From an uncultured Gemmatimonadales bacterium (lineage in GTDB: Bacteria; Gemmatimonadota; Gemmatimonadetes; Gemmatimonadales; GWC2-71-9), in assembly GCA_963739455.1 (NCBI GenBank), contig CAVUAK010000001.1, positions 672,001 to 736,000 of the forward strand: a stretch of 64,000 bases of DNA, in the 5' to 3' direction. Below the pieces are notes generated by a model. That model had not been told where the DNA came from and searched no databases. It saw only the letters and a list, made by a program, of their open reading frames with translations. A program made the position numbers and the translations under genes. Of this stretch, positions 2,245 through 41,700 are shown one piece after another. Positions within the stretch are counted from its first letter, which is position 1, and each line of letters opens with the position of its first letter.

Positions 2245-3966
2245 ATGACCCCAATGCGCGTAGCAATCCAGGGAACCCACGGCGCCTTCAGTGAAGCAGC
2301 TGCACGGCGCCGATGGCCCGAGCTCGAGGCGGTTCCCTGCCGTGAGGTCGCCGACGCAGTGGCCGCGGTGCGCGAGGGACGCGCCGATGCCGGTTGCCTC
2401 CCTATCGAGAACTCGCTGATCGGTTCCGTCACCGCCACGTACGACCTGCTGCACGAAGCCTTCGGCGACGGCACGCTGGCACTGACACACGAGACGCTGC
2501 TGCCGGTGCATCACACGATCATGGCGGTGCCCGGTGCCCGGGTGGAGGACATCAAGCGGGTCTACTCGCACCCGGTGGCCCTGGGCCAGTGCCGCCGCTG
2601 GCTCTCGAAGCACCTGCCAAACGCAGAGCTGGTCAGTGCGTGGGATACGGCCGGAAGCGCAGAGATGGTGGCGGCACACGGCGACCTGACCGAGGCCGCG
2701 ATCGCGGCGCTGCCGGCCGCGGCGGCTCATGGCCTGGTGCCGCTGGCGGAGCGGATCGAGGATGATCCCACCAACCAGACGCGCTTCCTCATCTTCAGCC
2801 GACAGGGTGCACCGGTCGTGCCCGCTGGCGCCGGGCCCTACAAGACCTCGCTCATCGTGTCGCTGGACCACCGGCCCGGCATGCTGGCGCATACGCTGCT
2901 CGCCTTCAGTGCGCGCGGCGTCAACCTCACTGCACTGCAGTCGCGGCCCGAGCCATCGGCGCCGTGGACATACCGGTTCTATGTAGACGTGGAAGGTGCC
3001 GCGACCGAGCCACGGGTCGCAGAGGCGCTGGAGGAGGTCGAGGCGCTGGCGGCGCAATTGATCGTCGTCGGCAGTTACGAGGCGTGGACCGAGGGCGTTC
3101 CCGGTTTCCGGATTTTCCACCCGACGCCGGCGCACCACGTGAAGAAGCCGGATATCCCGCTCATCGACCGGCGTCGTGCGCCGTCGGGCTCGATCGTGAA
3201 GGTGCGTCACCTCGAGTTCGGGGGCGAGAGGCCAGTGCTGATCGCCGGACCATGCTCGGTAGAGAGCCGGGAAATGATCCTGGAGACCGCCGAGGCGGTG
3301 GCCGCGGCGGGCGGCGACATGCTGCGGGGCGGCGCGTTCAAGCCGAGAACGTCGCCGTACGACTTCCAGGGACTGGGCGTGAAGGGCCTGCGCTATCTCG
3401 CAGAAGCGCGCGAACGCACGGGGCTCCCGATCGTCACCGAGGTATTGAGCTGGGAAGAGGTTCCGCTGGTGGCGCAGTTCGCCGACATGCTGCAGATCGG
3501 TGCCCGTAACATGCAGAACTTCTCCCTGCTCAGGGCGGCGGCACGGAGCGGCGTGCCCGTGCTGCTCAAGCGCGGGGCAGGCGCCACGATCGAGGAGTGG
3601 CTGATGGCGGCGGAGTATGTGCTGGCGGAGGGCAACCCGAACGTGGTGCTGTGCGAGCGCGGCATCCGCACCTTCGAGCGGGCAACGCGACACACGCTCG
3701 ACCTGAATGCGGTGGTGCTGGTGCGCGAACGGTCACATTTGCCCGTTGTGGTAGACCCGAGTCACGCGGCGGGTGTGGCGAGCCTGGTTACCCCACTCGC
3801 CGAAGCATCACTTGCGGCCGGAGCGGCGGGGCTCATTGTTGAGGTACACCCGAACCCGAAGCAGGCAATGAGTGACGGGCCACAGAGTCTCGACATCCCG
3901 ATGTTCGAGGAACTCGCGCGACGGGTGCACCCGCACCTCGCGCAGAGCACACTACTGCGAGCGTAG
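2245..3966 (+). CDS. aroF: Prephenate dehydratase (with ACT domain) fused to class I-beta DAHP synthase
   Basis: N-terminal PheA motifs (QGTHGAFSE, PIENS, SHPVALGQC, NQTRF, LQSRP); C-terminal DAHPS motifs (IAGPCSVES, RGGAFKPRTSPYDFQG, QIGARNMQN, LCERGIRTF, DPSH). Confidence 0.93.
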   Translation: MTPMRVAIQGTHGAFSEAAARRRWPELEAVPCREVADAVAAVREGRADAGCLPIENSLIGSVTATYDLLHEAFGDGTLALTHETLLPVHHTIMAVPGARVEDIKRVYSHPVALGQCRRWLSKHLPNAELVSAWDTAGSAEMVAAHGDLTEAAIAALPAAAAHGLVPLAERIEDDPTNQTRFLIFSRQGAPVVPAGAGPYKTSLIVSLDHRPGMLAHTLLAFSARGVNLTALQSRPEPSAPWTYRFYVDVEGAATEPRVAEALEEVEALAAQLIVVGSYEAWTEGVPGFRIFHPTPAHHVKKPDIPLIDRRRAPSGSIVKVRHLEFGGERPVLIAGPCSVESREMILETAEAVAAAGGDMLRGGAFKPRTSPYDFQGLGVKGLRYLAEARERTGLPIVTEVLSWEEVPLVAQFADMLQIGARNMQNFSLLRAAARSGVPVLLKRGAGATIEEWLMAAEYVLAEGNPNVVLCERGIRTFERATRHTLDLNAVVLVRERSHLPVVVDPSHAAGVASLVTPLAEASLAAGAAGLIVEVHPNPKQAMSDGPQSLDIPMFEELARRVHPHLAQSTLLRA

Positions 3967-4062
3967 GTCAATCGTCCCATGGCAGGGGGCCCGGTGCGCT
4001 GTGCGTGCCGGGCCCCCTGGCGCGTCATAGCCCCAAGGCCGCAGCAGAAACCAGGGGGATGC

Positions 4063-6489
4063 ATGTCCCACCGCGCCACGACGGGAAGGCGGTTCACTTC
4101 CTTCCGCGTGATTGTCGCAATATTTGCGTTCGCGCTGCCCCTGCACGCCCAGGATGCGCCCTACCGTCCCGCACTCGCGTCGCTGCGAGCCGCCCTCGAC
4201 AGCGAGGGCACTCCCCTCGGAATTGATCGCATTGCCGCCCATTGGGATTCCACGGCGGCATCGCCAACCAGGCGCCTTGGCAAGGCCTACATCGAGTTAC
4301 GCCGCGGCATCGTCGAGAACGACAAGGGCATTCTTCAGTCCGCCTGGGACGGATTCGACCAAGTGGTCAACGTGCATCCGGATTGGCCCTACGCCGTCCT
4401 GGGGCTCGCGATTTCGGCCCTCGAGATCGATATGCGCGGGTACAAGGTGCCCGGCATCTACGACGGGAGCCCCGGCCTCACGCACTACGAGGGAGCGGCG
4501 AAGCAGTTTGCGCGGCTCCTCGCCGAGGAACCCGATTTCCAGCCGGCGCTGGATTGGATCGCGAGCAGCCTGCTGACCGACGAAGGGGATCGGCTGCAGC
4601 CAGAGGCGTTCATGCAGGCGCTGGGCAAGGCGATCGACAAGGATTCATCCGCCGACCCCCGGCTCCAGCTCATGGTGGCGCGATCCCTCCGGCAGCAGGG
4701 GAATGGGCCTGAGTCAGTGCGACGCATTGAACTGTACCTGCGCCAGGGCGGAGACAGTGGCGTCGGCGAGTTCGAGCTGGCCCGGTCGCTCGCCAGCATG
4801 GATTCGCTGGCCCAGGGCGCGCGGGCGTACCTGGCAGGCGCGCAAGTCAGGACCTCGCCCACGCGTGCCATCTACCGGCTGGATCTCTCCTGGGTGGCCG
4901 CACCTCTCGAACTTGCCATTTTCGACAGCCTGCCCGCCGATTCCGTGGGCGCGTACGTGGCCCGGTTCTGGGACCAGCGTGACGCGCGCGAGTTCCGGGA
5001 CCCGGGGAGCAGGCTGCAGGAACACCTGCGTCGCTGGGCGTACATCAACCAGCACTTTCGGATCGCCGATCCCGGCGCGGTATCGGTGATGCAAAAGGTC
5101 CTGATTCCCAACCCGAACGAGAAGTGTGCGCTCGGGGGCACCATGACGATGGAAGACTACCAGTTCGTGCATCCCGCCTCGCCGACGGACTATCGGGCCG
5201 GCGAGAGGATCTTCGACCACCGTGCAGTCGTCTACATGCGACATGGCGAGCCGCTGTACAAGTTCGGTGGTGACACGCTCTCGCTGGCGGTCAATGCGAC
5301 GCAGCGGCAGGGTGGAGGCGGGAACCTCAGCGGGGGCGCGACGATGGACCAGTATGACCCGGTGATTGCACGAAACGGCGCGACCTCGATGGGCCTCGCC
5401 GAGATTCCGCTATCGCGCGTGACGCAGCCCTTCCTCGATCGCAACGTCACCTGGGTGTACATGATGGAAGGGCAGCTGCGGGCCTTCACCTTCATGGGCC
5501 ACGTTGCGCTGGGCACGGCGCATCCCACGACCTTGATCGTCTACATGCCGCCAAACCTGGACGTGCTTCTCCGGCTTTCGCAGGTCAGTTCGTCCTATGC
5601 CCAGCTCGCCGGCATGACGCAGTCGTACCAGGCCACCGGCGGTGGAATGATTCCCTTGACCTGCCAGCCAGAGTATCGCGACGTCGTGGCGGAGCAGCAG
5701 CATGGCGCCGATGTCGCGCTGCACACCGACAGCTACCTGGAGCTGTTTGCGCATCCGATCGGCGCGTCGATCCAGCTCGCAGCAGTGGGACAGCCGGCGC
5801 TCGGCACGGGCGAGCTCGTCGCTGCCATCGGGTTGCGTGTTCAGGATCTTCAGGAGGTCGAGGGGGTGGGCGACGCGAGCCGGGCGGCATACGCCGTACG
5901 CGTACGCATCGCGGCCATCGACAGCGTGACGGGTGAGGTGGCAAGGACTGACACGGTGCGGCGGTTTGCGGCTCCCAGAGCTGACAGCGGCTGGCTGCCG
6001 TTCATCGTGACGCTTCCGATCAGGAAGGGCTTCAAGGAGGTGCGGGTATCGCTGCAACAGGGGGACGATCGTGGCGCCACCCTGGCTTCCACCATCCAGC
6101 CCGCCGGCGCGGCATTCGCCGCAAGCGACCTGGTCCTGGGCGCCGAGGCGGGAGCGGCATCCTGGCGTCGCGATGGGGGCGTGGTACCGATGACCCCGTT
6201 CAGCACCTATCCCACGAGCGGTGCGGTGCTCATCTACCAGGAGCTGTACGGCCTCAAGCCCGGCGCGAAGTACCGCACGATGATCTCGCTGCGGAAGGCG
6301 GGGGACCCGAAGGCCAAGAGCGCCATTTCCTTCGAGGATGGTGCTTCCGGATCGACCATGGCGTCTTCTCGTCGACTGACGCTCGACCAGGTGAAGCCGG
6401 GAACGTATGACCTTGTGGTGGAGGTGCAGGAGCAGTCGACCGGCCGGAGCCTGCGGCGCACCCGCACCATCACGGTCACGGCGCACTAG
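4063..6489 (+). CDS. Secreted GWxTD-like domain protein, paralog 2
   Basis: Signal peptide ending LHA-QD; FWDQRDAREF...LQEHLRRWAY...FDHRAVVYMRHGEP; GGGGGA RBS before ATG 4063. Confidence 0.75.
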   Translation: MSHRATTGRRFTSFRVIVAIFAFALPLHAQDAPYRPALASLRAALDSEGTPLGIDRIAAHWDSTAASPTRRLGKAYIELRRGIVENDKGILQSAWDGFDQVVNVHPDWPYAVLGLAISALEIDMRGYKVPGIYDGSPGLTHYEGAAKQFARLLAEEPDFQPALDWIASSLLTDEGDRLQPEAFMQALGKAIDKDSSADPRLQLMVARSLRQQGNGPESVRRIELYLRQGGDSGVGEFELARSLASMDSLAQGARAYLAGAQVRTSPTRAIYRLDLSWVAAPLELAIFDSLPADSVGAYVARFWDQRDAREFRDPGSRLQEHLRRWAYINQHFRIADPGAVSVMQKVLIPNPNEKCALGGTMTMEDYQFVHPASPTDYRAGERIFDHRAVVYMRHGEPLYKFGGDTLSLAVNATQRQGGGGNLSGGATMDQYDPVIARNGATSMGLAEIPLSRVTQPFLDRNVTWVYMMEGQLRAFTFMGHVALGTAHPTTLIVYMPPNLDVLLRLSQVSSSYAQLAGMTQSYQATGGGMIPLTCQPEYRDVVAEQQHGADVALHTDSYLELFAHPIGASIQLAAVGQPALGTGELVAAIGLRVQDLQEVEGVGDASRAAYAVRVRIAAIDSVTGEVARTDTVRRFAAPRADSGWLPFIVTLPIRKGFKEVRVSLQQGDDRGATLASTIQPAGAAFAASDLVLGAEAGAASWRRDGGVVPMTPFSTYPTSGAVLIYQELYGLKPGAKYRTMISLRKAGDPKAKSAISFEDGASGSTMASSRRLTLDQVKPGTYDLVVEVQEQSTGRSLRRTRTITVTAH

Positions 6490-6546
6490 CTCGCCGCTGT
6501 GTGCGGGCCCGCTCGTGTCGCGCGTCCTCCTTGATCATTCCATGAT

Positions 6547-9084
6547 ATGGTCGAGGGCCGGATGCGCGAGCAGCACATGCGCAGGGCGAGCTATTTCCTG
6601 CTGACACTGGCATGTGGCGCATTGTGCCCCGCAGGGGCGCAGGCCCAGGACGCGCCTTATCGCCCCGCTCTGGCCCAGCTTCGCGCCGCACTCGACAGTA
6701 CACGGAGCGAACTCGACGTCGATCGTGTCGCCGCCGAGTGGGCCGTCGCGGGAAACGGCCCGACCCGCCGTCTCGGTCAGGCCTACATCCAGTTGCGAAG
6801 AGGAACGCTCGACCAGGAGCGCACCACGCTGGTTGCGGCGTGGGACGAGTTCGAGCAGGTGGTAACGGGTCATCCCGACTGGCCATATGCCCGTTTCGGG
6901 CTGGCGATGGCAGGGTTCCAGTTGTACAACCGGCACTACTCCGCGCCGGCCCTGTACGATGGCATGGCTGGCGGCACTCACTACGATGGCGTCGCGATCC
7001 AGCTGAGCCGGATGCTTCAGGACGAGCCCGGCTTTCAGCCCGGCGTGGACTGGGTTGCTTCCACGCTCGCGAGCGAGGGCGATCGTGCGCAGCGAGCCCC
7101 GGTGGTCGCAGTCCTGCGCTTCATCGCCGACTCGACGGCATCCACCAATCCCGGCATCCAGCTGATCCTCGCGCGCGCAGACCGTCTCGACGGCGATACG
7201 CAGCGATCGCTCGACCGGATCGACTCCTACCTGCGCGAGGGTGGTGATTCGGGGATAGCGGCGCTTGAGCGCGCGCGCTCGCTCGCCGCCCTGGACTCGC
7301 TCTCCTCCGCTGCCAGCAGCTACATGTCCGGCACCGCCATCCAGACTGCCGCGGCACGCGACATCTACCGACTCGACCTGTCGTGGGTCGCAACGGAGCT
7401 GGAGCTCAGCCAGTACGATCGTCTTGCCGCCGATTCTGTCACGGTGTTCGTGCAGCGGTTCTGGGCAAAGCGCGACGCGCGCGAGCTTCGTCCCGCTGGC
7501 AGCAGGCTTCAGGAACACCTGCGCCGGTGGGTGTATGTCAGCCAGAATTTCCGGGTGGATGATCCCGGGCGGCGTACCATGCTGAGCCAGGTACGCATCC
7601 CGAACCCGAATGAATCATGCGCGAGCGGGAAGCGCACGCTGGATGACTACAGCTATGTCGAGCCCACATTCCACGACTATCGAAGCCCGGAGCGTGTCTT
7701 CGATCATCGCGCGACGGTTTATATGCGACACGGCGAACCGCTCTACCAGTTCAGTGGCGACACGACGTCGACAGCGCTGATCGCCACCACTCGCGGCAAC
7801 ACGCGGACGAATGGTTACGACGAGGCCTTCTCTCGCGTTGCACAGCCGGGAATGGCCGCGAGCTCGGATCCCATCGCGGCGATCGCAAGCCAGTATCCGG
7901 GCGCAGGGACAACCAGTCCGGCCAGCGCGTTCAGGGCAACACAGTCGCAGAACAGAGTCATGAACACCCCGACAACAGACCCCCGCGTGCCAACCGCGCC
8001 GTATACCGCCGCCTATGCCGATCGCAACGTGACCTGGGTCTACAACCTCGGTGGCCAGATCCGTGCGTTCACCTTCCAGGGGCACGAAGCGCTGGGCACA
8101 AGTCATCCGTCCACGCTGATCGTGGGTCGGGCACCCAACCTCGACGTGCTCCTGCAGGTCGGCTCGTACTCCGAGTCGTACATCAAGCTGGCCAACGCCG
8201 TCGAACAGCGCCTGTTGCATGACAACATGATCCCGCTGAGTTGTACCCGGGCATACCGTGATGTCATTCGAGAGCAGCAGGAGGGAGCGGCCGTGGCGGT
8301 GCGCACCGACAGTTACGAGCGCCGCTTCAAGAAGCCGATATCCTCGATGATCCAGGTTGCCGCGATGGGTCAGCCCTCATCCGGCACCGGTGAGGTGCTG
8401 GTGGCCGTGGGCGTCAAGATGAATGAACTCGAGGAGGTGGCCGGAACGAGCAATGGTGGAAAGGCGGGTTACATAGTCCGGGTGGAGCTGGCTGCGATTG
8501 ACAGCATCCGCGGCGAGGTGATCTCCGTGGACACGGTTCGTCGTTTCCTGGCTCGGCGCGAACAGTCGGGCTGGCTGTCATTCGTCACGACAATGCCACT
8601 GCGCCCCGGGCTGGCCGAGTTCCACATGTCGGTGTCACAGGGCGATGAGCGGGGAGTCGTGCAGGCCGTCATACTCGATCCTGCGTCGGGGGGATTCTCG
8701 GCGAGCGACATCGTACTCGGAACGGCCTCCGGCCCCGCGTCCTGGCTGCGCGATGGGGCGACGGTCTCGGTGAACCCCTACAATGCCTACCGCACCGACG
8801 ATGCATTGAGCATGTACCAGGAGCTCTATGGACTGACGCCGGGAATGACCTATCGCACGATGGTGTCGCTCCGGGAGGTCAAGAAGGGAAAGAAGGCGAA
8901 GGGAATGAAGGTGGCGCTCAACTTCGAGGAGACAGCCGCCACCCCGACACTTGCCACATCAAGGGAGCTGGCGCTCGACAACGTAAAGCCGGGGCTCTAC
9001 GACCTGCTCATTGATGTGGAGGAGGTGTCCACCGGCCGCACCGTACACCGCGAGCGCTCGATCGCGGTGTACGCCAAGCCATAG
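6547..9084 (+). CDS. Secreted GWxTD-like domain protein, paralog 3 (start may be 6562 or 6577)
   Basis: AQA-QDAPYRPALA N-terminus shared with paralog 2; FWAKRDARE...QEHLRRWVYV...FDHRATVYMRHGEP. Confidence 0.75.
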   Translation: MVEGRMREQHMRRASYFLLTLACGALCPAGAQAQDAPYRPALAQLRAALDSTRSELDVDRVAAEWAVAGNGPTRRLGQAYIQLRRGTLDQERTTLVAAWDEFEQVVTGHPDWPYARFGLAMAGFQLYNRHYSAPALYDGMAGGTHYDGVAIQLSRMLQDEPGFQPGVDWVASTLASEGDRAQRAPVVAVLRFIADSTASTNPGIQLILARADRLDGDTQRSLDRIDSYLREGGDSGIAALERARSLAALDSLSSAASSYMSGTAIQTAAARDIYRLDLSWVATELELSQYDRLAADSVTVFVQRFWAKRDARELRPAGSRLQEHLRRWVYVSQNFRVDDPGRRTMLSQVRIPNPNESCASGKRTLDDYSYVEPTFHDYRSPERVFDHRATVYMRHGEPLYQFSGDTTSTALIATTRGNTRTNGYDEAFSRVAQPGMAASSDPIAAIASQYPGAGTTSPASAFRATQSQNRVMNTPTTDPRVPTAPYTAAYADRNVTWVYNLGGQIRAFTFQGHEALGTSHPSTLIVGRAPNLDVLLQVGSYSESYIKLANAVEQRLLHDNMIPLSCTRAYRDVIREQQEGAAVAVRTDSYERRFKKPISSMIQVAAMGQPSSGTGEVLVAVGVKMNELEEVAGTSNGGKAGYIVRVELAAIDSIRGEVISVDTVRRFLARREQSGWLSFVTTMPLRPGLAEFHMSVSQGDERGVVQAVILDPASGGFSASDIVLGTASGPASWLRDGATVSVNPYNAYRTDDALSMYQELYGLTPGMTYRTMVSLREVKKGKKAKGMKVALNFEETAATPTLATSRELALDNVKPGLYDLLIDVEEVSTGRTVHRERSIAVYAKP

Positions 9085-11424: not shown

Positions 11425-12558
11425 ATGGCGTCATCCCCGCCTTCCCCGCCCTCCCCGCCTTCCGATTGGCTGCACCACCTCGCTGACGAGGCTGATGCGG
11501 CATTCCTCTATCGCGAGCTGGCCCAGGCCGAAAGTGACCCCGGCCGATCGAAGATCTACGGCCAGCTCGCCGAGGTCGAGGACCGGCATGTCGAAGCGTG
11601 GCAGAAGCTGCTCACCGAGCAGGGGCACGTGGTGACGGTACCAGCACCGTCGCGGGACGCCCGGCTCCGCGCGTGGGTAGCGCGCCGTATCGGGCCGGGC
11701 GTGGTGCTGCCACTGCTGCTCGAGGAAGAGGGCCGCGAGGTCAAGAGTTACCTCTCGATGTATCGCGATGAGCCCCAGGGCGCGGCCGGTCCGACGGCCC
11801 TCAAGCTCGCGCGCGAGTCGAAGGAACACGCCGAGCGTCTCGCCTCGATGGGCGGCGGTGCCGCGGAACCGTGGCACAAGACCGGGGCGGGTGGTTTCCT
11901 CCGGAACGTCGTTTACGGCTTCAATGACGGACTCACCGCCAATTTCGGCCTCGTGGCCGGCATGATCGGCGCACAGGGCGCCAACCTTGGCGGTCACGCG
12001 GTGCTGGTGGCTGGCGTCGCAGGCATGGTGGCCGACGCATTGTCGATGGCGTCGTCGGGCTATCTCGCCGCGAAGAGCGAGCGCGAGGTGTTCGAGCACG
12101 AAATCGCGATGGAGCGGGACGAGATCAAGCTCATGCCCGAGCTCGAGGGCGAAGAGCTGAGCCTCATCTACCAGGCGAAGGGCATTCCCGCAGCACAGGC
12201 CGACGCACTTGCCGCCGAGGTGATGAAGGACCCCGAGCGCGCGCTCGCCGAAAAGGTGCGCGAGGAACTGGGCATCGGTGAGGCCACGAGCACGCCGATG
12301 CGTGAGGCATGGATTACCGGGACGGCCACGGCACTCGGCGCGCTTATCCCGGTAGCGCCCTTCTTCTTCGGCCGCGGACCGCTCGTCATCTGGACGTCGT
12401 TCGCGCTCGCAATGCTGAGCCACTTTGCCGTCGGCGCGGCGCGCAGTTTCTTCACCGGCCGCGGCGTGATCCGAAGTGGCATGGACATGTTCCTGGTGGG
12501 GCTTGGCGTGGCCGGCATCGGCTATGTAGTGGGCGACTGGATCGTACGACTCCTCTAG
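11425..12558 (+). CDS. VIT1/CCC1 family transporter with N-terminal rubrerythrin/ferritin-like domain
   Basis: LAEVEDRH and LARESKEH (ExxH) motifs; LRNVVYGFNDGL and SMASSGYLAAKSERE VIT1 motifs. Confidence 0.88.
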   Translation: MASSPPSPPSPPSDWLHHLADEADAAFLYRELAQAESDPGRSKIYGQLAEVEDRHVEAWQKLLTEQGHVVTVPAPSRDARLRAWVARRIGPGVVLPLLLEEEGREVKSYLSMYRDEPQGAAGPTALKLARESKEHAERLASMGGGAAEPWHKTGAGGFLRNVVYGFNDGLTANFGLVAGMIGAQGANLGGHAVLVAGVAGMVADALSMASSGYLAAKSEREVFEHEIAMERDEIKLMPELEGEELSLIYQAKGIPAAQADALAAEVMKDPERALAEKVREELGIGEATSTPMREAWITGTATALGALIPVAPFFFGRGPLVIWTSFALAMLSHFAVGAARSFFTGRGVIRSGMDMFLVGLGVAGIGYVVGDWIVRLL

Positions 12559-12563
12559 ATCGC

Positions 12564-14495
12564 GTGGACTCACCCGGCGCGATCACCCTTCCGCCGCGGT
12601 TCCGGCTCGATCGCGAGATCGGGCGCGGCGGCATGGCAGTCGTTTATCGCGCGCACGACCACCACCTCGACCGTTTCGTCGCCATCAAGGTGCTGTCCGC
12701 CGACTGGTCGCGCGGGGTCGGGAGTGATCGCTTCCAGCGCGAGATCGGGTTGATGGCCCGACTGGTTCATCCCGGCATCGTGGCACTGTTCGATTCCGGC
12801 GAAGTGGATGGACGGCTCTTCTATGTCATGCCGTTCGTCGCAGGCGAGACCCTCCGCGATCGCCTGACCCGCACCGGCCGCATGCCTGTCGAGGAGGCCG
12901 CAGCGCTCGGTGCAGACATCGCCGAGGCACTCGCCTATGCACACGGCCTTGGCATCGTGCACCGGGACGTCAAGCCGGAGAACATCTTCTCGGTCAGCGG
13001 GCGCGCCGTGCTGGCTGACTTCGGCATCGCCCGCGTCAACGACCAGGCTGATCGAAGTGCCCTGACAACGGCGGGAGTCGTCGTGGGGACGCTGTCGTAC
13101 ATGAGCCCGGAACAGGCATCGGCCGATGCGGGCCTGGACGGTCGCTCGGACCTCTATAGCCTGGGCTGTGTGCTCTATGAGTTGCTGACGGGCCGGGCGC
13201 CATTCGTTGCGACCACGCCCCTCGCCATCATGGCGAAGCACATGACGGAGACACCGCGTCCCCCCGGCACGCAGGGCGTGGAAGTGCCTGCCGCAATGGA
13301 TGCGATCATCATGCAACTGCTCGCCAAGGACGCTGGTGAGCGACCGAGACATGCCGGTGACGTGGCGCTGGCCCTGCGCGCGATGGCACAGCGACCCACC
13401 GCCGTCTCACCTCCGACCCCGGCGCCCGAACACTCTCCTGTACCGCGAAGCGATAGCGGGGCCAGCGCGGCGAGCGAGGTGAACCGCCTCATTGCCGAGG
13501 GGAAGCGGGCGTTCCGGTTGTATAGCCCCGGAGAGGGGGCCAAGGCGCGGACACGTCTCGATGAGGCGAAGACCTACCTGGACCGCGCGCTCGCACTGGA
13601 TCCCCGGAACGCACACGGTCTCTCCATGATGGGCAACTGGCACTTCGTGGCCGGCATCAGCGGAATCATGGATCGCGAGGAGGCCTTTGCACGGGGACGC
13701 GAGCTCATCATGGCGGCGCTCGCCGCCGATGACCAGGTCGCCGAAGTGCAGTGTTCCATGGCCAAGCTTGCGCTCTACTATGACGACGATTTCCACGCCG
13801 CCGCGCGCCACGTGGAGCGCGCCATCCAGCTGGACCCATTCGACCGCGAGGCACTGCGGCTGCAGAGCATCGTGTTCAAGATCCTGGGTCGCACCGATGA
13901 CGCGGTGCGCGCCGCCCAGGCCGCGACCGAGCGAGCACCCCGGGAGCCGGTGACGTGGAATTCACTGGGCGATGCGCTGCTGGCGGCCGGCCGGAATGCC
14001 GAGGCGGTCGATGCCCTGAAGCGGGCCATCAGCCTGCAGTCCGGGTACGGCCCCGCCCTCGAGCGCCTCGAGATCGCCCGCGGGCGACTCGGGGAGCATG
14101 AACTTGCGCTCGAGATCCGGAGTTCACGAATTCGCCTTTCGGGCGATCGCGAGCGTGCTGACCTGCTGGACCGCGAGGGGCTGGAGGCGGGCGCGGCAAC
14201 CGCGCTGCAACGCGACCTGCGCCGCGAGCTGAGCGCCCTGCTCTCGGAGGCGGCGCGAACGGACGCATTCGCAGAGTATTTCACCACCCGGACGACCGCC
14301 GACCGAATCGTCATGGTCTGTATCGAACTGGGTGATTGGCAGACCGCGATGGACTGGGTGGAACAGTCCTACCAGCGACGACCGGGACGGCTCCGGCGGC
14401 TGCTCACCGAGCTTCCCTTCGATCGCCGTGCGCTCGCCGTCGACCCACGGTATGCTCGCCTGCTTCGCGTGGCCGGCCTGGAAGAGCTGATCTGA
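12564..14495 (+). CDS. Ser/Thr protein kinase with C-terminal TPR repeats
   Basis: GRGGMAVV, VAIK, HRDVKPEN, DFG, GTLSYMSPEQ; TPR-like helices follow. GTG start inferred. Confidence 0.9.
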   Translation: MDSPGAITLPPRFRLDREIGRGGMAVVYRAHDHHLDRFVAIKVLSADWSRGVGSDRFQREIGLMARLVHPGIVALFDSGEVDGRLFYVMPFVAGETLRDRLTRTGRMPVEEAAALGADIAEALAYAHGLGIVHRDVKPENIFSVSGRAVLADFGIARVNDQADRSALTTAGVVVGTLSYMSPEQASADAGLDGRSDLYSLGCVLYELLTGRAPFVATTPLAIMAKHMTETPRPPGTQGVEVPAAMDAIIMQLLAKDAGERPRHAGDVALALRAMAQRPTAVSPPTPAPEHSPVPRSDSGASAASEVNRLIAEGKRAFRLYSPGEGAKARTRLDEAKTYLDRALALDPRNAHGLSMMGNWHFVAGISGIMDREEAFARGRELIMAALAADDQVAEVQCSMAKLALYYDDDFHAAARHVERAIQLDPFDREALRLQSIVFKILGRTDDAVRAAQAATERAPREPVTWNSLGDALLAAGRNAEAVDALKRAISLQSGYGPALERLEIARGRLGEHELALEIRSSRIRLSGDRERADLLDREGLEAGAATALQRDLRRELSALLSEAARTDAFAEYFTTRTTADRIVMVCIELGDWQTAMDWVEQSYQRRPGRLRRLLTELPFDRRALAVDPRYARLLRVAGLEELI

Positions 14496-14502
14496 CCCGC
14501 GC

Positions 14503-14531
14503 TTGACACCACCGCTGGTTTCGCGTATCTC
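14503..14531 (+). promoter_or_regulatory. sigma70 promoter of the sulfur-relay operon
   Basis: TTGACA (14503-14508), 17 nt, TATCTC (14526-14531). Confidence 0.6.
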
Positions 14532-14548
14532 TGGATACGACAATTGAT

Positions 14549-14600
14549 TCGTGGTCATTTGCCGCGTATTGCAGCCACGTTAAACAAATGCTAAAAAGCG
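14549..14600 (+). ncRNA. SAM-II (SAM_alpha-like) riboswitch aptamer
   Basis: CGTGGTCATTTG...TTGCAGCCACGTTAAACAAATGCTAAAAAGCG. P1 CGTGG/CCACG, UUU loop, TTGC/GCTAA pairing and A-rich 3' end match the SAM-II consensus as I recall it. Lies upstream of sulfur amino-acid genes. Confidence 0.82.
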
Positions 14601-14603
14601 AGA

Positions 14604-14636
14604 CGTCCGCGCCTCGTTGCCGCGGGCGCTTTTTTT
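14604..14636 (+). terminator. Intrinsic terminator (riboswitch expression platform)
   Basis: Stem CGTCCGCG/CGCGGGCG followed by T7 (14630-14636). Confidence 0.75.
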
Positions 14637-14669
14637 CGTCGCCAGTTCCTGGGCGACAGGGATGCCTGC

Positions 14670-15933
14670 ATGACCGCAGCCGCTGTTTCTCCGAAGGTGC
14701 GTGCGCTTCCGCTCCGGTGCCGCAATTGTGGCGTGGAGACCGAGCCGGCGCCCAAGGCCATCTGCGAAGAGTGCCTGGGACCGCTCGAGCCACTCTATGA
14801 TCCTGCGCGGCACTTGCCGACGCGTGCCGAGATTGGCGCGCGGGCAGCGTCGCTCTGGCGCTACCACGAGTGGCTGCCGCTCGAGGGCACCCCGCCCTAC
14901 TCCCTCGATACCGGGTTCACCCCGCTGGTAGAAGTGCCCCGCCTGGCACCACTGCTCGGCGTGGCGCGGGTGTGGGTGAAGAACGACGCGGTGTCACACC
15001 CGAGCCTGTCGTTCAAGGATCGCGTCGTTGCCGCCGCGATCAATGCGGCCGCGGCGTTCGGCATCGATACCGTCGGCTGCGCCTCCACCGGCAACCTGGC
15101 CAATGCCGTCGCCGCGCAGGCTGCCCGCGCCGGGCTGCCTGCCTGGATCTTCATCCCCGACAACCTCGAGCTGGGCAAGGTCGTGGGTACCTCCGTGTAC
15201 GCACCGAACCTCGTGCGCATCCGGGGCACCTATGACGACGTGAACCGGCTCTGTGCCCAGGTGGCCGATCGCTATGGCTGGGGCATCGTCAACGTGAACC
15301 TGCGCTCGTACTACGGCGAGGGATCGAAGACGGTCGCGTTCGAGATCGCGGAACAGCTCGGCTGGCGCCTGCCGACCGCGGTCGTGGCGCCGATGGCAGG
15401 CGGGTCGCTGGTGTCGAAGCTGGGGAAGGGATTCCGCGAGTTCATCTCGCGCGGGACTGGTGAACGGCGAATCGCCGCGGCTCTACGGGGCGCAGGCCAC
15501 GGGGTGCGCGCCGATCGTGCGGCTGGTCGAGCGCGGCGATGGCCAGCTCATTCCCGAGATCCCGGACACGATTGCGCGCTCGATCGCCATCGGCAACCCG
15601 GCGGATGGCGCGTACGCCGCCGAGTCGATCCGGAAGTCAGGTGGCTGGGCGGCGAGCGTGAGCGATGCCGAACTGGTGAAGGGGATCAAGCTGCTCGCCG
15701 AGACGTCGGGGATCTTCACCGAGACGGCTGGTGGGGTGACACTCGCAAGTGCGCTCGAACTGGCGCGCACCGGTCACTTCCGCGCGGACGACGAGGTAGT
15801 GCTCTGCATTACGGGGAACGGCCTCAAGACGGTCGAGGCCCTGAGCGGTTCATTGGATGAGGCACCGGTGCTGGCACCCCGCCTCCGTGACGTCGCGGAT
15901 CTCGTGGCGCGCACGTCGCAGAATTCACGCTGA
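14670..15933 (+). CDS. thrC: Threonine-synthase-family PLP enzyme, possibly an O-phosphohomoserine sulfhydrylase (frameshift near 15450)
   Basis: N-terminal CxxC...CxxC; SLSFKDR (PLP Lys); ASTGN; EGSKT; continues in ORF 15460..15933 (SIAIGNP, ETAGG, ITGNGLK). Confidence 0.85.
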
Positions 15934-15946
15934 GGAGGGATTCATC

Positions 15947-16222
15947 ATGTCCGTAACGCTTTCCCTGCCCGCTGTCCTGACCCGCCTCACCGATGGTGCC
16001 CGTACGCTCGAGGCGACCGGGGCCACGGTGGGCGATGTGGTACAGGATGTGGCCGGCCGGTTTCCGCAGCTCGCGCCGCGCCTGCGCGACGAGCAGGGCA
16101 ACCCATACTCCTTCGTGACGTTCTACCTGAACGACGAGGACATTCGCTTCACCGGTGGCTTTGCCACCGTCGTGCGGGACGGCGATGAGCTGATCATCGT
16201 GCCCGCCATTGCAGGAGGCTGA
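15947..16222 (+). CDS. MoaD/ThiS/CysO-family sulfur carrier protein
   Basis: 91 aa, [10 protein letters not shown]-terminal PAIAGG-stop; GAGGAGG RBS. Confidence 0.92.
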
Positions 16223-16226
16223 CTCC

Positions 16227-17397
16227 ATGACCACATCAATTGCCGCGGAGCCGCTGCCCGAGCTGGGCAACGACGAGATCCTCCGCTACAGCCGCCACCT
16301 GATCCTGCCCGAGTTCGGGCTCGAGGCCCAGCGCAAGCTCAAGGCATCGAGCGTGCTCGTCGTCGGGAGCCGGCGGGCTCGGCTCGCCGCTGGGCCTCTA
16401 CCTGGCTGCCGCCGGTGTCGGCCGGCTTGGCATCGTGGACTTCGACGTCGTTGATGCCACCAACCTGCAGCGGCAGATCATTCACGGTACCGCTGACGTC
16501 GGTCGCCCGAAGCTCGACTCGGCGCGCGACCGCATCCAGGGGCTTAACCCGCACGTGGATGTGCAGACCTACGAGGGGCGCTTCACGTCGGCCAACGCGC
16601 TCGAGATTGCGCGCGACTACGACCTCGTCATCGACGGCACGGACAACTTCCCGACGCGCTACCTGGTGAACGACGCGTGCGTGCTGCTGGGCAAGCCCAA
16701 CGTGTATGGCAGCATTTTCCGCTTTGAGGGGCAGGCCTCCGTGCTCGCGACGGACAGCGGGCCTTGCTATCGCTGCCTGTTCCGTGAGCCGCCACCCCCG
16801 GGCATGGTGCCGAGCTGCGCTGAAGGCGGCGTGCTCGGCGTGCTGCCAGGGCTCATTGGCGTGATCCAGGCCACGGAGGCGATCAAGCTGCTCACCGGCA
16901 TCGGCGAGCCGCTCATCGGCCGGCTGCTCCTGGTGGACGCACTGCGCATGCAGTTCCGCACGCTGAAGTTGCACCGTGACCCACTGTGCCCCGCGTGCGG
17001 CACGCGCGAGATCCAGTCGCTGATCGACTACGAGCAGTTCTGCGGGTTGAACGACGTGGACAGCAGCGTGGATGCCACCATTCCGGAGCTGACACCGAAG
17101 CAGCTCGCCGCGCGCATCGAGCGGGGCGATGACTTCGACCTGATCGACGTCCGCGAGCCGCAGGAGTGGGCGATCGCCCAGCTTCCCGGCGCGCGGCTCA
17201 TTCCGCTGGGCACACTCCCCGCGGCGCTGGGTTCGCTGGACAGCGCTCGCGAGGTGGTGATCTACTGCAAGGGTGGTGTGCGGAGCCTTCGCGCGGCGAC
17301 GCAACTGCGCGCTGCCGGGTTCCGCAAGGTGTCGAACCTCACTGGCGGCATCCTGCGCTGGAGCAGCGATGTCGACCCCAGCGTGCCGACCTACTGA
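16227..17397 (+). CDS. moeB: MoeB/MoeZ adenylyltransferase-rhodanese fusion (frameshift near 16370)
   Basis: [10 protein letters not shown]; GxGGLG split by the frameshift; [34 protein letters not shown]-terminal rhodanese YCKGGVRS. Confidence 0.92.
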
Positions 17398-17489
17398 TGA
17401 CGTACCTGCCGAGCATGCCCATGCCCTGTTGTTGTGACCGTTGCATGCGACGGTCGGGGCTGGGGCATGTCCGGTGGTCACCGCCATAG
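17397..17489 (+). CDS. Putative cysteine-sensing leader peptide [30 protein letters not shown] (30 aa)
   Basis: ATG overlaps the moeB stop (TGATG). TGT-TGT-TGT-GAC-CGT-TGC at 17427-17444. Followed by a terminator and then a sulfurtransferase gene. Confidence 0.75.
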   Translation: MTYLPSMPMPCCCDRCMRRSGLGHVRWSPP

Positions 17490-17519
17490 CGGCGCAACGA
17501 CCAGTGCATGCATCACCCC

Positions 17520-17551
17520 GACCCACCGACACCCGGTGGGTCTCTTTTTTT
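17520..17551 (+). terminator. Attenuator terminator upstream of the sulfurtransferase
   Basis: GACCCACCG-acacc-CGGTGGGTC followed by TCTTTTTTT. Confidence 0.85.
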
Positions 17552-17586
17552 CACCAAGGCCCGATTCACACTGAGGAGAATGAACG

Positions 17587-18486
17587 ATGACTGCCACTCG
17601 CCCCGCGCCAACCACCGCCACGGCCCCCATCGAGGAGCGTGGATATGCCCGCCCCGACGTGCTCGTGTCTACCACCTGGCTGGCTGACAACCTCGATGAC
17701 CCGAAGCTCCGCCTGCTGGAGAGCGATGAGGACGTGCTGCTCTATGACCTGGGGCACATTCGCGGCGCACAGAAGATCGACTGGCACGACGACCTGAATG
17801 ACCCGGTGGTTCGTGACTACATCAACGACGCGGGCTTCGAGCGCCTGCTTCGGCGGCTGGGCATCGACCAGACCACAACGGTGGTGCTCTACGGCGACCG
17901 GAACAACTGGTGGGCCACATATGCGTTCTGGGTGTTCCGGCTCTTTGGTTTTCCCGAGTCGCAGCTGCGCCTGCTCGACGGTGGGCGCGCCGCGTGGGAG
18001 GCAGAGGGCCGGCCCCTCGTCACCTCGCTCAAGTCCTTCACCGCAAGCCGGTATCGCGGTCCCAGGCGCGACGACAGCGGCATTCGCGCATTCCGGGAGG
18101 AAGTACTGGAGCATTCAGCGCGGGGCCGTCCACTGATCGACGTACGGTCGCCCGACGAGTTCACCGGCCGCAAGCTGCACCTGGTGGAGTATCCGCAGGA
18201 GGGAGTGCTGCGCGGCGGCCATGTGCCGGGGGCGAGCAACGTGCCGTGGGCGCGCGCGGCCAGCACCAACGGGACCTTCAAGGACGCTGAGACACTGCGT
18301 GACATCTACGAGGGCGAGGCCGGCCTCAGGAAGGGCGACAGTGTCATCACCTACTGCCGCATTGGCGAGCGGTCGAGCCATACCTGGTTCGTGCTGACGT
18401 ACTTGCTGGGCTATTCGAAGGTGCGGAACTACGACGGCAGCTGGACAGAGTGGGGCAACGCGGTAGGACTGCCGATCGAGAAGTAG
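17587..18486 (+). CDS. Tandem-domain thiosulfate sulfurtransferase (rhodanese, CysA/SseA type)
   Basis: GHIRGA, LLDGG, GGHVPGA, active site [26 protein letters not shown]. Confidence 0.93.
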
Positions 18487-18549: not shown

Positions 18550-19026
18550 CTACTTGTTGAAGACCGCCGAGAACTTCTGGGCCGCGTCCGGACCGGACTT
18601 CGCGCTCACGATGTCGGTCATCGCGGGCACCATCTTCTGGAACTGGTCCTGCGAAACCCCGGCGTTCTTCAGCGAGCCCGACAGGCTCGTCAGCCCCACC
18701 ATCTCGCTGGGCATGCCCAGCTTGGAGCCTTGCCTGATGAGGTTGTCGCTTCCGGGAAAGGCGCTTGCCACCTGCCTGAAATCGGCTGGTTGCATTTGGC
18801 TCTGCGCATAGAAGAGTATGCCGCCCATGGCGTTGGCAGTCTGCAGCTGGGTCAGTTCCGGCACGGACTTCTGCACCTGGCTGACCACCTCGTTGGAGGC
18901 GCCGAGCGGATTCGGCAGGGGCTCCGTGCCGGCCGATGACTGGGGGTGGCTGCACGCTCCCACCACGGCCACGCACGCGAGTGTCGAACCGAAGACCCTG
19001 ACCGACTTCATTGCAAGCGATACCAT
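18550..19026 (-). CDS. Lipoprotein, DUF2780-like, paralog A
   Basis: Lipobox VGA-C; GGILFYAQSQMQPADF...FPGSD; GGAGG RBS. Confidence 0.65.
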   Translation of the reverse strand: MVSLAMKSVRVFGSTLACVAVVGACSHPQSSAGTEPLPNPLGASNEVVSQVQKSVPELTQLQTANAMGGILFYAQSQMQPADFRQVASAFPGSDNLIRQGSKLGMPSEMVGLTSLSGSLKNAGVSQDQFQKMVPAMTDIVSAKSGPDAAQKFSAVFNK

Positions 19027-19166
19027 ACGAACCTCCGTTGATGGCGTAAGCAGGCTCAGTGAAGCCGTCGGGCTACACTGGCACCTGTACCTTCGCATCA
19101 TACGGTCGGCAGGAAGGTCCCACTAGGGAGGGTCGAACGGCCTATGCCTGGTCGGGCGCGCCTCGC

Positions 19167-19190
19167 GCCGCCAGGGGAGCCCCTGGCGGC
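19167..19190 (-). terminator. Hairpin downstream of paralog B
   Basis: GCCGCCAGGG-gagc-CCCTGGCGGC. Confidence 0.5.
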
Positions 19191-19201
19191 ACGGGTTGGG
19201 C

Positions 19202-19693
19202 CTAGCTCCTGAACACCGCCGCGAACTTGTCGGCGACCTCAGCTCCCTCCTTCTCCTTCACGACCTCTGTCATGGCGGGAACGAGCTGGTTGAACTGATC
19301 CCGGGAAATCCCGATGTTCTTGAGCGAGCCCGACAAGCTCGTGAGCCCATACATCTCGCTGGGCATGCCGAGCCTGGTGCCTTGATTGATCATCGCATCA
19401 CTTCCCGGAAACGAGTTCTTCACCTTCCTGAAATCGGCCGGCTGCATCGAACGCTGTGCATAGTACAGGATGCCGCCCATGCCCTGTGCTATCTGCGTCG
19501 GGGTCAGCCCGGGCACCGCACCCTGAACCTCGTTGACCACCGGCGCGGAGGAATGGAGCGGGTACTGCAGCGCAGCAGGCGCGCCGGGCGCCTGCGTGGC
19601 GCCATTCCCACTACAGGCAGCCGCGAGCGCGAGCACCGCGCATGCGAGGGTGGAGCCGACAAACCTCCCTGGTCGAGCCGCAATCATTGCCAT
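19202..19693 (-). CDS. Lipoprotein, DUF2780-like, paralog B
   Basis: Lipobox AAA-C; core nearly identical to paralog A (LGMPSEM.GLTSLSGSLKN). Confidence 0.65.
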   Translation of the reverse strand: MAMIAARPGRFVGSTLACAVLALAAACSGNGATQAPGAPAALQYPLHSSAPVVNEVQGAVPGLTPTQIAQGMGGILYYAQRSMQPADFRKVKNSFPGSDAMINQGTRLGMPSEMYGLTSLSGSLKNIGISRDQFNQLVPAMTEVVKEKEGAEVADKFAAVFRS

Positions 19694-37567: not shown

Positions 37568-38428
37568 TCAGCGCGGCGGTCCAGTTTCGATGGGCAGGTC
37601 ATGGCGCTGTCCCCACTCCGTCCACGAACCATCGTAGAGCGAAATGTCCGTGACGCCGAGCACATGCAGTGCGAACAGCAGGCTGCACGCAGTGACACCT
37701 GACCCACACGAAGCAATGAGTGGCTGCTTTGTGTCGATGCCGGCGTTCGCGATGGTCGCGCGAAGTTCCGCCGGTGAGCGCAGCAGGCCACGGTCATCGA
37801 CGAGCTGCGCGTAGGGGATGTTCCTGCTGCCGGGTATGTGACCGCCACGAACGCCGGGGCGCGGCTCGGGCTCGGTCCCTTCGAACCTTCCGCGCGAGCG
37901 CATGTCGACGACCTGTGCGGTGCGCTGCTGCTGTGCTTCAAGCACCTGGGGCGCACTTCGCATCATGGCGGGGCGGAGAACTGCGCTGAAGTTTCCGCGC
38001 AGTGGAAGCCTCGCGTCGCCGAACTCCAGTGGGGCGCCGGCGTACTCCGTCCACGCGGCGAGGCCGCCGTCGAGCACGGAGACCGCATCATGCCCGAAAG
38101 CGCGGAACATCCACCAGGCGCGTGGCGCACTGAAGTTGGTGCCCGAGGCATCGTAGACGACGACATGATCGGTGCTGGAAACACCGAGTCGCGATACCAC
38201 CTCCGCGAACTGCGCCGCGGGCGGGAGGGTGTGCGGCAACGGCGACGCAGGATCGCTCGCGTCATCAATGTTGAAGAGCTGCGCGCCGGGGATGTGACCC
38301 ACGCGGAACTCGCCGTCGGGATCGCGGTTCATGCCCGTGAGGTACCAGGAGGCGTCAAGGACCCGGACACCGGGGTCGTCAAGATGGTCCCGAAGCCACC
38401 GAGCCGATACGAGGGGAGGAACAGGCAT
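37568..38428 (-). CDS. sseA: 3-mercaptopyruvate sulfurtransferase
   Basis: VLDASWY, GHIPGA, RAWWM, active site [17 protein letters not shown]. Confidence 0.92.
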   Translation of the reverse strand: MPVPPLVSARWLRDHLDDPGVRVLDASWYLTGMNRDPDGEFRVGHIPGAQLFNIDDASDPASPLPHTLPPAAQFAEVVSRLGVSSTDHVVVYDASGTNFSAPRAWWMFRAFGHDAVSVLDGGLAAWTEYAGAPLEFGDARLPLRGNFSAVLRPAMMRSAPQVLEAQQQRTAQVVDMRSRGRFEGTEPEPRPGVRGGHIPGSRNIPYAQLVDDRGLLRSPAELRATIANAGIDTKQPLIASCGSGVTACSLLFALHVLGVTDISLYDGSWTEWGQRHDLPIETGPPR

Positions 38429-38526
38429 GCATGAAGCTACTCCCCTCATGTCTTCACGTCCTCACGCCCAGTTTGACCGCACGATTCGGGTAGCCGCGCC
38501 ATCTGTGCGGCGCTAACGTGTGCACC

Positions 38527-41259: not shown

Positions 41260-41700
41260 ATGCCTTCCCTCGACACCGTCATCGCTCGTTTCCGCAGCGC
41301 CGACCGCAACACCCGGCTCGAGACGCTGCTCGATTACTCACGCAAGCTTCCACCACTCCCGCCGGAGTACGAGGCGCTCAAGGCCGAAGGGAAGAACCTC
41401 GTCCCGGAGTGCCAGACGCCGGTGTATCTCTGGATCGGTGTCGACCACGGCAAGGTGAGCCTGCATGCCGACGTGCCGCGTGAGTCTCCCACCGTACGCG
41501 GATTTGTGGCGCTGCTGCTCAAGACGCTCGACGGTCTTTCACCCGCTGAAGTCGCTGCCGTGCCGGGCGACCTCCTCGACCAGATGCAGCTGACCGAGAC
41601 CCTGGGGATGATGCGCACCCAGGGCCTCACGTCCATTCTCGGGCGCATCAAGCGCTCGGTGGCGAACCCCACCTTGCAGGACGCCAGCCCCGGAACCTGA
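41260..41700 (+). CDS. sufE: SufE family sulfur-acceptor protein
   Basis: RLETLLDYSRKLPPLP, VPECQTPVYL, ESPTVRGF. Confidence 0.88.
   Translation: MPSLDTVIARFRSADRNTRLETLLDYSRKLPPLPPEYEALKAEGKNLVPECQTPVYLWIGVDHGKVSLHADVPRESPTVRGFVALLLKTLDGLSPAEVAAVPGDLLDQMQLTETLGMMRTQGLTSILGRIKRSVANPTLQDASPGT

Follow-up and report, generated by a model that had tools for sequence, protein, structure and literature searches.

Introduction

The closest described counterpart of the locus reported here is the MetM/MetO route of Streptomyces albulus (Hasebe et al. 2024, as summarized in GapMind 2026), in which MetM makes homocysteine from O-phosphohomoserine with the MetO thiocarboxylate, MoeZ and the maturase Mec, the last being listed there as the maturase of MetO-Cys. 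The same summary states that MetM is frequently misannotated as threonine synthase, and S. albulus metM is described as having an S-adenosylmethionine (SAM) riboswitch upstream (PMC12172450). Here, we analyze a plus-strand operon in a 64,000-nucleotide stretch of DNA from an uncultured Gemmatimonadales bacterium (the window; G000:C1:672001-736000, where G-numbers are genomes, C-numbers contigs and L-numbers loci, and G000 is the genome of the window, a 3.6 Mb assembly that is 84% complete). We read it, with a probability of about 0.8, as a MetM/MetO/MoeZ operon that makes homocysteine de novo under control of a SAM-II riboswitch and a leader attenuator. Its core is a known pathway, published in 2024 from Streptomyces, and the window holds a regulatory variant of it.

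As far as the S. albulus route is described in the two sources above, it shares with our locus a ThrC homolog of the same clade with a SAM riboswitch upstream, an adjoining downstream Gly-Gly carrier, MoeZ, and separate ThrC and ThrB; the initial annotation of the window, made from the sequence alone, had described this pathway correctly. The variant traits in the window are a SAM-II riboswitch with a terminator in place of SAM-I, moeZ within the operon, a carrier made without C-terminal Cys and no Mec found, an extra sulfurtransferase behind a conserved predicted cysteine/methionine (Cys/Met) leader attenuator, and the coexistence of metY-metX. A SAM-II aptamer followed by a terminator has a precedent before metZ of Sinorhizobium meliloti (PMC9373788, in the part available to us); aptamer class and arrangement are the same, but the phylum here is Gemmatimonadota and the targets are metM and metF-metH.

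For the leader, the nearest described elements, according to the portions of the sources accessible to us, are mycobacterial polycysteine short open reading frames (ORFs), such as Ms5788A before cysA2, that act on translation (10.1101/834739), predicted actinobacterial Cys leaders that lack a terminator (PMC1262725), and the uORFC-8-2 motif before cysS of Rhodobacterales, a predicted Cys attenuator (PMC8632094). Ms5788A/cysA2 resembles the leader of the window in its short Cys-rich ORF, thiosulfate sulfurtransferase target and, for the window as a prediction, cysteine response. In contrast to the translational control of that leaderless ORF, which has no intrinsic terminator, the window has a predicted terminator/antiterminator pair, and its leader ORF is coupled to the upstream gene, is also Met-rich and lies downstream of a riboswitch. 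Regulatory codons, predicted competing stems and a U-tract terminator are shared with uORFC-8-2 and the classical trp and thr attenuators; relative to uORFC-8-2, itself only predicted, sequence, phylum and targets differ (here sulfurtransferase, metY, cysH and metM). In these sources, known Cys elements are predicted or translational only; the leader would offer a short, tractable case of a Cys/Met-sensing transcription attenuator.

Our literature search, which left most subscription journals outside, retrieved no paper on methionine or homocysteine synthesis via a sulfur carrier protein in Gemmatimonadota and none joining SAM-II riboswitches with this phylum; no riboswitch-plus-leader tandem was recognisable by title or abstract opening. 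Gemmatimonadota may already figure in the distribution tables of Hasebe et al. 2024. The reading proposed here would carry the pathway known from Streptomyces into a large phylum, most of it uncultured, in which databases call the enzyme threonine synthase.

Genomes compared

The operon was compared with those of the congeners G001, G003 and G009. Distribution was assessed in a phylum sample of 150 genomes, with 39 loci holding a MetM-clade enzyme, and in a second sample of 230 genomes of the order that overlaps the first and contributes 35 new MetM genomes. The actinobacterial set comprised the best 80 loci of at least 600 matches from a scan seeded with a Nonomuraea homolog. Intact G001 proteins were used in downstream analyses in place of the frameshifted G000 copies. 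Phylogenies are quick trees with Shimodaira-Hasegawa-like approximate likelihood ratio test (SH-aLRT) support, the second of which took 25 of 68 entries.

A MetM-clade enzyme annotated as threonine synthase

Rfam, profile, ORF and terminator searches, with sequence conservation for the promoter, placed all elements listed by the initial annotation (promoter, SAM-II-like aptamer with terminator, ThrC-like enzyme, carrier, MoeB-rhodanese, Cys-codon leader with terminator, sulfurtransferase) on the plus strand and in the order given there. The first gene (14670..15933; one extra base near 15450) encodes a pyridoxal phosphate (PLP) enzyme of fold-type II, annotated as threonine synthase, with two CxxC motifs and the PLP lysine in SFKDR; its named homologs are from Gemmatimonadales. 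Homologs in the phylum split in two, as 39 of the 150 genomes hold a copy of at least 54% identity and the remaining matches are below 40%. The Gemmatimonadota enzymes cluster with Streptomyces and Nonomuraea homologs in both trees (SH-aLRT 99-100), apart from the ThrC of the thr operon and from Bacillus and Brevibacillus ThrC, and a grouping with ThrC is rejected by the approximately unbiased (AU) test (p-AU 5e-18). The comparison against MetM and true ThrC that had been suggested as a check on the enzyme, with Streptomyces orthologs standing in for S. albulus MetM (UniProt A0A059WBP2), thus ended in the MetM clade. The G001 ortholog is 47-49% identical to Streptomyces and Nonomuraea homologs led by SAM-I and 30-35% identical to ThrC. 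The Nonomuraea homolog (48% identity) is led by a SAM-I riboswitch and accompanied by a Gly-Gly carrier; SAM-I lies upstream in 10 of 10 actinobacterial clade loci tested and in none of eight other thrC-family loci. From this sequence evidence, MetM function is very probable. The proposal of the initial annotation that the 'thrC' is a homocysteine synthase gains support from the phylogeny, the separate thr operon, the SAM-II regulon and the thrB/hom operon partners in relatives.

Alternatively, the enzyme could be a second threonine synthase or a threonine/O-phosphohomoserine lyase, with carrier and MoeZ acting as a general relay for thiamine, molybdenum cofactor and tRNA thiolation. Several results speak for this alternative. 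The intact G001 protein exceeds the TIGR00260 thrC cut-off (237.6 versus 167.1), and no ThiF-family gene other than MoeZ was found. Moreover, a Microcystis homolog that shares the same motif region is reported, in the accessible part of PMC12172450, to act as a threonine synthase and deaminase without increasing methionine in vivo, which speaks against a clean MetM assignment. However, G000 already carries on C3 a canonical thrA-thrB-thrC operon, the second thrC that had been looked for, which provides both a supply of O-phosphohomoserine and a distinct ThrC. The clade is furthermore led by SAM riboswitches of two unrelated classes in two phyla, the carrier is linked to the enzyme in 37 of 39 phylum loci and adjoins it in 74 of the best 80 actinobacterial loci, and the enzyme has NVNLRSYY where solved ThrCs have NSVNPYR. 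We consider a second ThrC quite improbable. Use of the thiocarboxylate for cysteine or cysteate synthesis (CysO/CysM-like) instead of homocysteine is more improbable still: the Cys-rich leader within the operon would suit it, and the enzyme weakly matches the cysteate synthase model TIGR03844 (31-37 bits), but this is far under the cut-off of 324.9, the enzyme is ThrC-like and not CysM-like, and SAM control together with co-operonic thrB/hom indicates a C4 substrate. As a separate observation, the genus has a third, long-branched ThrC-like family (L063, L065, L066 and G000:C2:22300-23039).

Support for the MetM function also comes from the surroundings of the gene. Homoserine kinase thrB is present in 37 of the 39 MetM genomes and lies inside the operon in five relatives, as does homoserine dehydrogenase hom in three, which points to O-phosphohomoserine as the substrate. 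In 30 of the 39 genomes neither metY nor a strong MetX-like match (E of 1e-60 or lower) was found, although three of the 30 have weaker ones, and MetM may be their sole route to homocysteine; no MetX-like match at all reached the TIGR01392 cut-off. The expected anti-correlation with metX/metY was absent, with MetX-like genes in 9 of 39 MetM genomes and 30 of 111 others. G000 itself also has metY-metX, which the initial annotation missed while naming these genes as something to look for; the MetM route is consequently redundant in this genome, a point that speaks against our reading.

Carrier, MoeZ and the absence of Mec

Downstream of the enzyme follows a MetO-like ubiquitin-fold sulfur carrier of the ThiS/MoaD family (15947..16222; PF02597, 47 bits), 91 amino acids long and ending in AGG without an extension. 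Its G90-G91 is invariant in 26 aligned homologs; one locus of the phylum sample stops at a contig edge. The third gene encodes MoeZ, a ThiF/E1-like adenylyltransferase with rhodanese domain (16227..17397; extra base near 16365), whose nucleotide-binding, zinc and rhodanese Cys motifs are intact in G001. ThiS- and MoaD-like carriers exist elsewhere in G000, yet no further ThiF-family gene was found, which is awkward with tight SAM repression and thus a further difficulty for the proposed regulation. MoeZ may be shared with the other carriers, implying leaky repression.

The initial annotation noted no JAMM/Mec peptidase in the window, and this extends to the whole of G000 and four congeners, in which no Prok-JAB (PF14464) match rose above the cut-off. 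Mec was found in 16 of the 39 MetM genomes. Among phylum carriers, 34 of 37 end at Gly-Gly, and among the three extended ones, two share their operon with a JAB peptidase; 48 of the 74 carriers from the best 80 actinobacterial loci end at GG. Of 28 carriers lying next to JAB genes, 24 are MoeB fusions. This pattern fits a Mec that acts as a maturase, unneeded by a carrier of this kind, and would make it conditional rather than defining for the pathway. The window accordingly offers a candidate Mec-free system for asking how homocysteine leaves its carrier. JAB peptidases also occur with a carrier-MoeZ fusion protein, sometimes with a sulfurtransferase, in a separate module (L176-L204) that is common in MetM genomes without moeZ in the operon.

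The initial annotation correctly recognized the ThrC-like enzyme and the MoeB-rhodanese but overlooked a one-base frameshift in each. Both genes have one extra base compared with three congeners, whose genes are in frame. We regard these frameshifts as most likely assembly errors, because the G000 assembly splits 13 of 34 genes across frames in a test set drawn from congener loci (11 of 32 when these two are set aside). They could instead be real and tolerated in a decaying pseudo-operon of this strain, since metY-metX supplies homocysteine; two of the four genes are frameshifted, the redundant pathway is there, and congener G006 lacks the operon. Against such decay, the assembly splits genes elsewhere at the rate just given, the sequence on either side of each break is about 91-100% identical to intact congeners, and the regulatory RNA is near-invariant. 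Decay is therefore unlikely.

Promoter and SAM-II riboswitch

A candidate sigma-70 promoter precedes the operon (14503..14531, plus strand), with TTGACA at 14503-14508, a spacer of 17 nucleotides and TATCTC at 14526-14531. Both boxes are kept in 4/4 aligned congeners around a variable spacer, which agrees with the promoter of the initial annotation; the consensus scan, however, returned 0 matches, the candidate remaining below threshold. The only Rfam family found in the window is SAM-II (SAM_alpha, RF00521; 14541..14613, plus strand), which scores 40.8 bits (E 9e-6) against a gathering score of 36. P1 is formed by 14550-14554 and 14575-14579, and the pseudoknot by CGC (14563-14565) with GCG (14598-14600). 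In 34 of 35 parsed SAM-II copies the pseudoknot covaries (19 CGC/GCG, 15 GGC/GCC), so that score, P1 and covarying pseudoknot place the aptamer in the class. A terminator-like hairpin (14598-14629; -16.6 kcal/mol on folding) with a U7 tract forms the putative expression platform (14598..14636, plus strand) and is near-invariant across the four congeners. Between it and the start codon lies a second small hairpin (GTCGCC...GGCGAC, 14638..14657, plus strand), of which the stem is kept and the loop variable in the four congeners. Against switching, the terminator is present in the modelled structures whether the aptamer is blocked or free; nascent-RNA modelling gave a weak alternative pairing.

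SAM-II lies upstream of the MetM-clade gene in 35 of 39 phylum loci, at distances of up to 5.6 kb (32 found by a strict pattern, two by Rfam and one by a looser pattern). The only other SAM-II found in G000 leads metF-metH (G000:C1:632546-637299), an arrangement kept in 5/5 congeners (L158-L162).

A Cys/Met leader before the sulfurtransferase

A 30-codon leader ORF (17397..17489, plus strand) overlaps the moeZ stop and carries Met7, Met9, Cys11-13, Cys16 and Met17. The peptide core and the stop position are kept in 4/4 congeners (including G001, G003 and G009), with TAG changed to TGA in G009. It is followed by an intrinsic terminator with a 9-bp stem and a U-tract (17520..17552, plus strand). 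Constrained folding predicts an antiterminator (17452..17523, plus strand) in which GGTCGGGG (17452-17459) pairs with CCCCGACC (17516-17523); CCCCGACC overlaps the 5' arm of the terminator, and the antiterminator is modelled as freed by a ribosome on Cys11-13. The region folds with a z-score of -3.9 compared with shuffled sequences. In a model with a ribosome placed at each codon in turn, the sole drop in terminator probability falls at Pro10-Asp14 in 3/3 congeners and goes no lower than about 0.6-0.75. As in known attenuators, a conserved short ORF with regulatory codons thus stands upstream of the cognate gene, and we take the leader to be a likely functional transcription attenuator, as judged from these models. 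Being Met-rich too, it may sense Met besides Cys.

Four points count against attenuation. The terminator is kept in G001 and G009 but lost in G003, whose sulfurtransferase is also broken; in the equilibrium model, it remains the main structure even when a ribosome occupies Cys12-13 (0.72-0.74); and the nascent-RNA proxy gives a noisy profile here, with non-Cys codons equally high. Fourth, the rule by which leaders were counted was tuned after leaders had been seen, and the relatives are not independent. A loose genome-wide rule (Cys-rich short ORF before a terminator) returned 33 rows in GC-rich G000, mostly by chance. Although the Cys-codon leader with terminator of the initial annotation is conserved in 4/4 congeners, a Cys-rich ORF with terminator is for this reason not significant by itself. 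The tuned rule selects 8 of 1308 G000 genes, two of them being this sulfurtransferase and metY, as well as 16 of 21 metY loci of families f1/f2, none of nine loci of the distant family f10, and 9 of 30 sulfurtransferase loci.

Leaders of this Cys/Met type occur across the order in front of metY, cysH and metM. SAM-II is followed directly by such a leader before metM in G159 (L092) and G079 (L099), and a Cys leader takes the place of SAM-II before metM-carrier-JAB in G145 (L126). In G161 (L123), a promoter and a Cys/Met leader stand before a candidate cysH-cysI pair (by translation) just downstream of moeZ. The metY-metX locus of G000 (C1:2070971-2067882, minus strand), which includes a carbonic-anhydrase-like ORF (by translation) between the two genes, has its own Cys/Met leader, whose terminator is strong and whose antiterminator is conserved; its kin are L138-L142 and L206-L235. 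There the nascent proxy is cleaner, at 0.83-0.88 over Cys5-Cys13 and 0.01 at the stop (4/5).

The sulfurtransferase and a possible two-input gate

The last gene (17587..18486, plus strand) encodes a tandem-domain (tandem rhodanese) sulfurtransferase of the thiosulfate/mercaptopyruvate type with active-site Cys257 in CRIGERS, which we take to resemble mycobacterial CysA2 and SseA. No NIR_SIR match for a sulfite reductase was found in five congeners. The enzyme would draw sulfur from thiosulfate when cysteine is short. The initial annotation proposed that two sensors in series express it only when SAM and Cys are both low, and leader plus riboswitch may indeed form a two-input gate; we judge true SAM-and-Cys gating plausible from the modelled elements, at slightly better than even odds.

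It is also possible, if doubtful, that the MetM/MetO assignment holds while the sulfurtransferase is a passenger with transcription of its own. Its leader module would then have moved behind moeZ in this genus and answer only to Cys/Met or to nothing, so that no gate exists. Similar leaders precede sulfurtransferase genes without nearby carrier or moeZ in eight other genomes. Within the MetM loci compared, no genus but this one has the gene behind moeZ, it is decayed in G003, and G000 has a leaderless paralog at C1:1010981; on these last three grounds the gate would be local and dispensable. However, the leader start lies 0-7 nucleotides from the moeZ stop in 4/4 congeners, the leader has no evident ribosome-binding site, and a pattern search matched no TTGACA-type internal promoter between moeZ and the leader. 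The direct tandems of SAM-II and leader before metM in G159 and G079, with further tandems in G251, G207 and G191, likewise argue against a passenger. Elsewhere in the window, a tandem rhodanese (37568-38449, minus strand) and a SufE-like ORF (by translation; 41260-41700, plus strand) lie about 20 kb downstream of the operon.

Proposed mechanism

The operon might operate as follows. As established for its family, MoeZ would adenylate the C-terminal Gly of the carrier and form the thiocarboxylate via its rhodanese Cys. ThrA and ThrB would supply O-phosphohomoserine, from which MetM would eliminate phosphate and take sulfur from the carrier to give homocysteine, as secondary sources describe for S. 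albulus MetM and as orthology and context suggest here; MetH would then methylate the product. Mec would be dispensable because the carrier is made already mature. SAM bound to the SAM-II aptamer would favour early termination, the aptamer being evident and the switching presumed. RNA polymerase that passes moeZ would meet the attenuator, where stalling at Cys/Met codons could free the antiterminator, and the sulfurtransferase would be made only at low SAM and with poorly charged Cys- and Met-tRNA. Under cysteine scarcity, this enzyme would probably supply MoeZ with sulfane sulfur taken from thiosulfate or mercaptopyruvate.

A PanB paralog in relatives: a candidate natural homoserine route

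The most valuable new item of the analysis is located outside the window. In engineered strains, ordinary PanB interconverts pyruvate plus a one-carbon (C1) unit and 4-hydroxy-2-oxobutanoate (HOB) as a promiscuous activity, and it partly rescued a Pseudomonas putida hom mutant (PMC6966089, 10.1101/2025.02.17.638773, as far as these sources were accessible); homoserine synthesis based on YfaU is reviewed in PMC7918591. Several SAM-II operons of relatives contain a PanB-like gene with a class I aminotransferase gene and often thrB (L100 in G073, L101, L103, L107, L109, L115, L117, L123, L353 and L378-L390, in or near the metM operon). In L109 the paralog spans 5393-6274, and in L100 the aminotransferase gene lies near 3079-4275. 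The order of steps in the engineered homoserine cycle or HOB pathway, from pyruvate plus C1 to HOB and by transamination to homoserine, would be the same. In contrast to those designs, in which the accessible text terms HOB non-natural, wild genomes here hold a dedicated paralog, placed under SAM-II or Thr/Met/Ile leaders and apparently replacing homoserine dehydrogenase.

The paralog occurs in 12 of 150 genomes of the first sample, of which 11 have MetM, 11 a second, ordinary panB and 11 no homoserine dehydrogenase. Among MetM genomes, it is present in 10 of the 12 that lack hom and 1 of the 27 that have it in the first sample, in 12 of 15 and 1 of 20 among the 35 new genomes of the second, and hence in 22 of 27 versus 2 of 47 in both, counts in which incomplete and related genomes overstate independence. 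Its upstream region holds SAM-II in 11 of 12 (first sample) and 12 of 13 cases (second sample). In G122 (L349:6160-6325), a Thr/Ile-rich leader with terminator stands in place of SAM-II before the aminotransferase and the paralog, and in G251, G207 and G191 (L391, L392, L393) SAM-II is followed by a Thr/Met leader with terminator before the aminotransferase-PanB pair. At the sites matching residues 214 and 200 of Escherichia coli PanB, all 25 paralogs have Ile and Tyr, respectively, where 18 ordinary copies have Val and Ile/Val; residue 214 presumably lines the donor pocket.

We lean towards a natural, aspartate-independent route, as far as gene content can suggest one, in which the PanB paralog would hydroxymethylate pyruvate, the aminotransferase would form homoserine, ThrB would phosphorylate it and MetM/MetO would yield homocysteine. 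As part of the same reading and with the same lean, these homoserine and homocysteine modules would be tuned by order-wide Cys/Met- and Thr/Met-codon attenuators stacked behind SAM-II. Five hom-negative MetM genomes are without the paralog. One paralog genome (G094) lacks MetM, and genomes with neither hom nor MetM mostly lack the paralog (63 of 64 in the first sample). The literature found on HOB consists of engineering papers and reviews, none identified as describing a natural PanB route, with most subscription journals outside the search; PanB is unmentioned in the accessible part of GapMind 2026. Should the paralog act as its distribution suggests, it would be an alternative to the aspartate pathway that exists in nature, and an enzyme ready for use in engineering C1 assimilation. 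The module is not part of the genome of the window, as G000 has hom and a single panB.

Two paralog loci have other surroundings. In G245 (L396), a SAM-II-led paralog away from metM is followed by a canonical-looking thrC; in G094 (L348), a SAM-II-led paralog lies back-to-back with a second SAM-II that leads ATP-grasp-like and flavin-monooxygenase-like ORFs (by translation). Many genomes of the phylum sample have thrB but neither homoserine dehydrogenase nor the PanB paralog.

Neighbouring genes

A Ser/Thr kinase-TPR gene lies directly upstream of the operon (12309-14495) and is absent in G001 and G003, where a VIT1-like gene (by translation) abuts the promoter instead; from this comparison, the kinase-TPR gene looks like a lineage-specific insertion. 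Further upstream, the window encodes two tandem paralogous secreted proteins of about 840 amino acids (3979-9084), and two tandem paralogous small lipoprotein-like genes (18550-19693) are convergent on the end of the operon.

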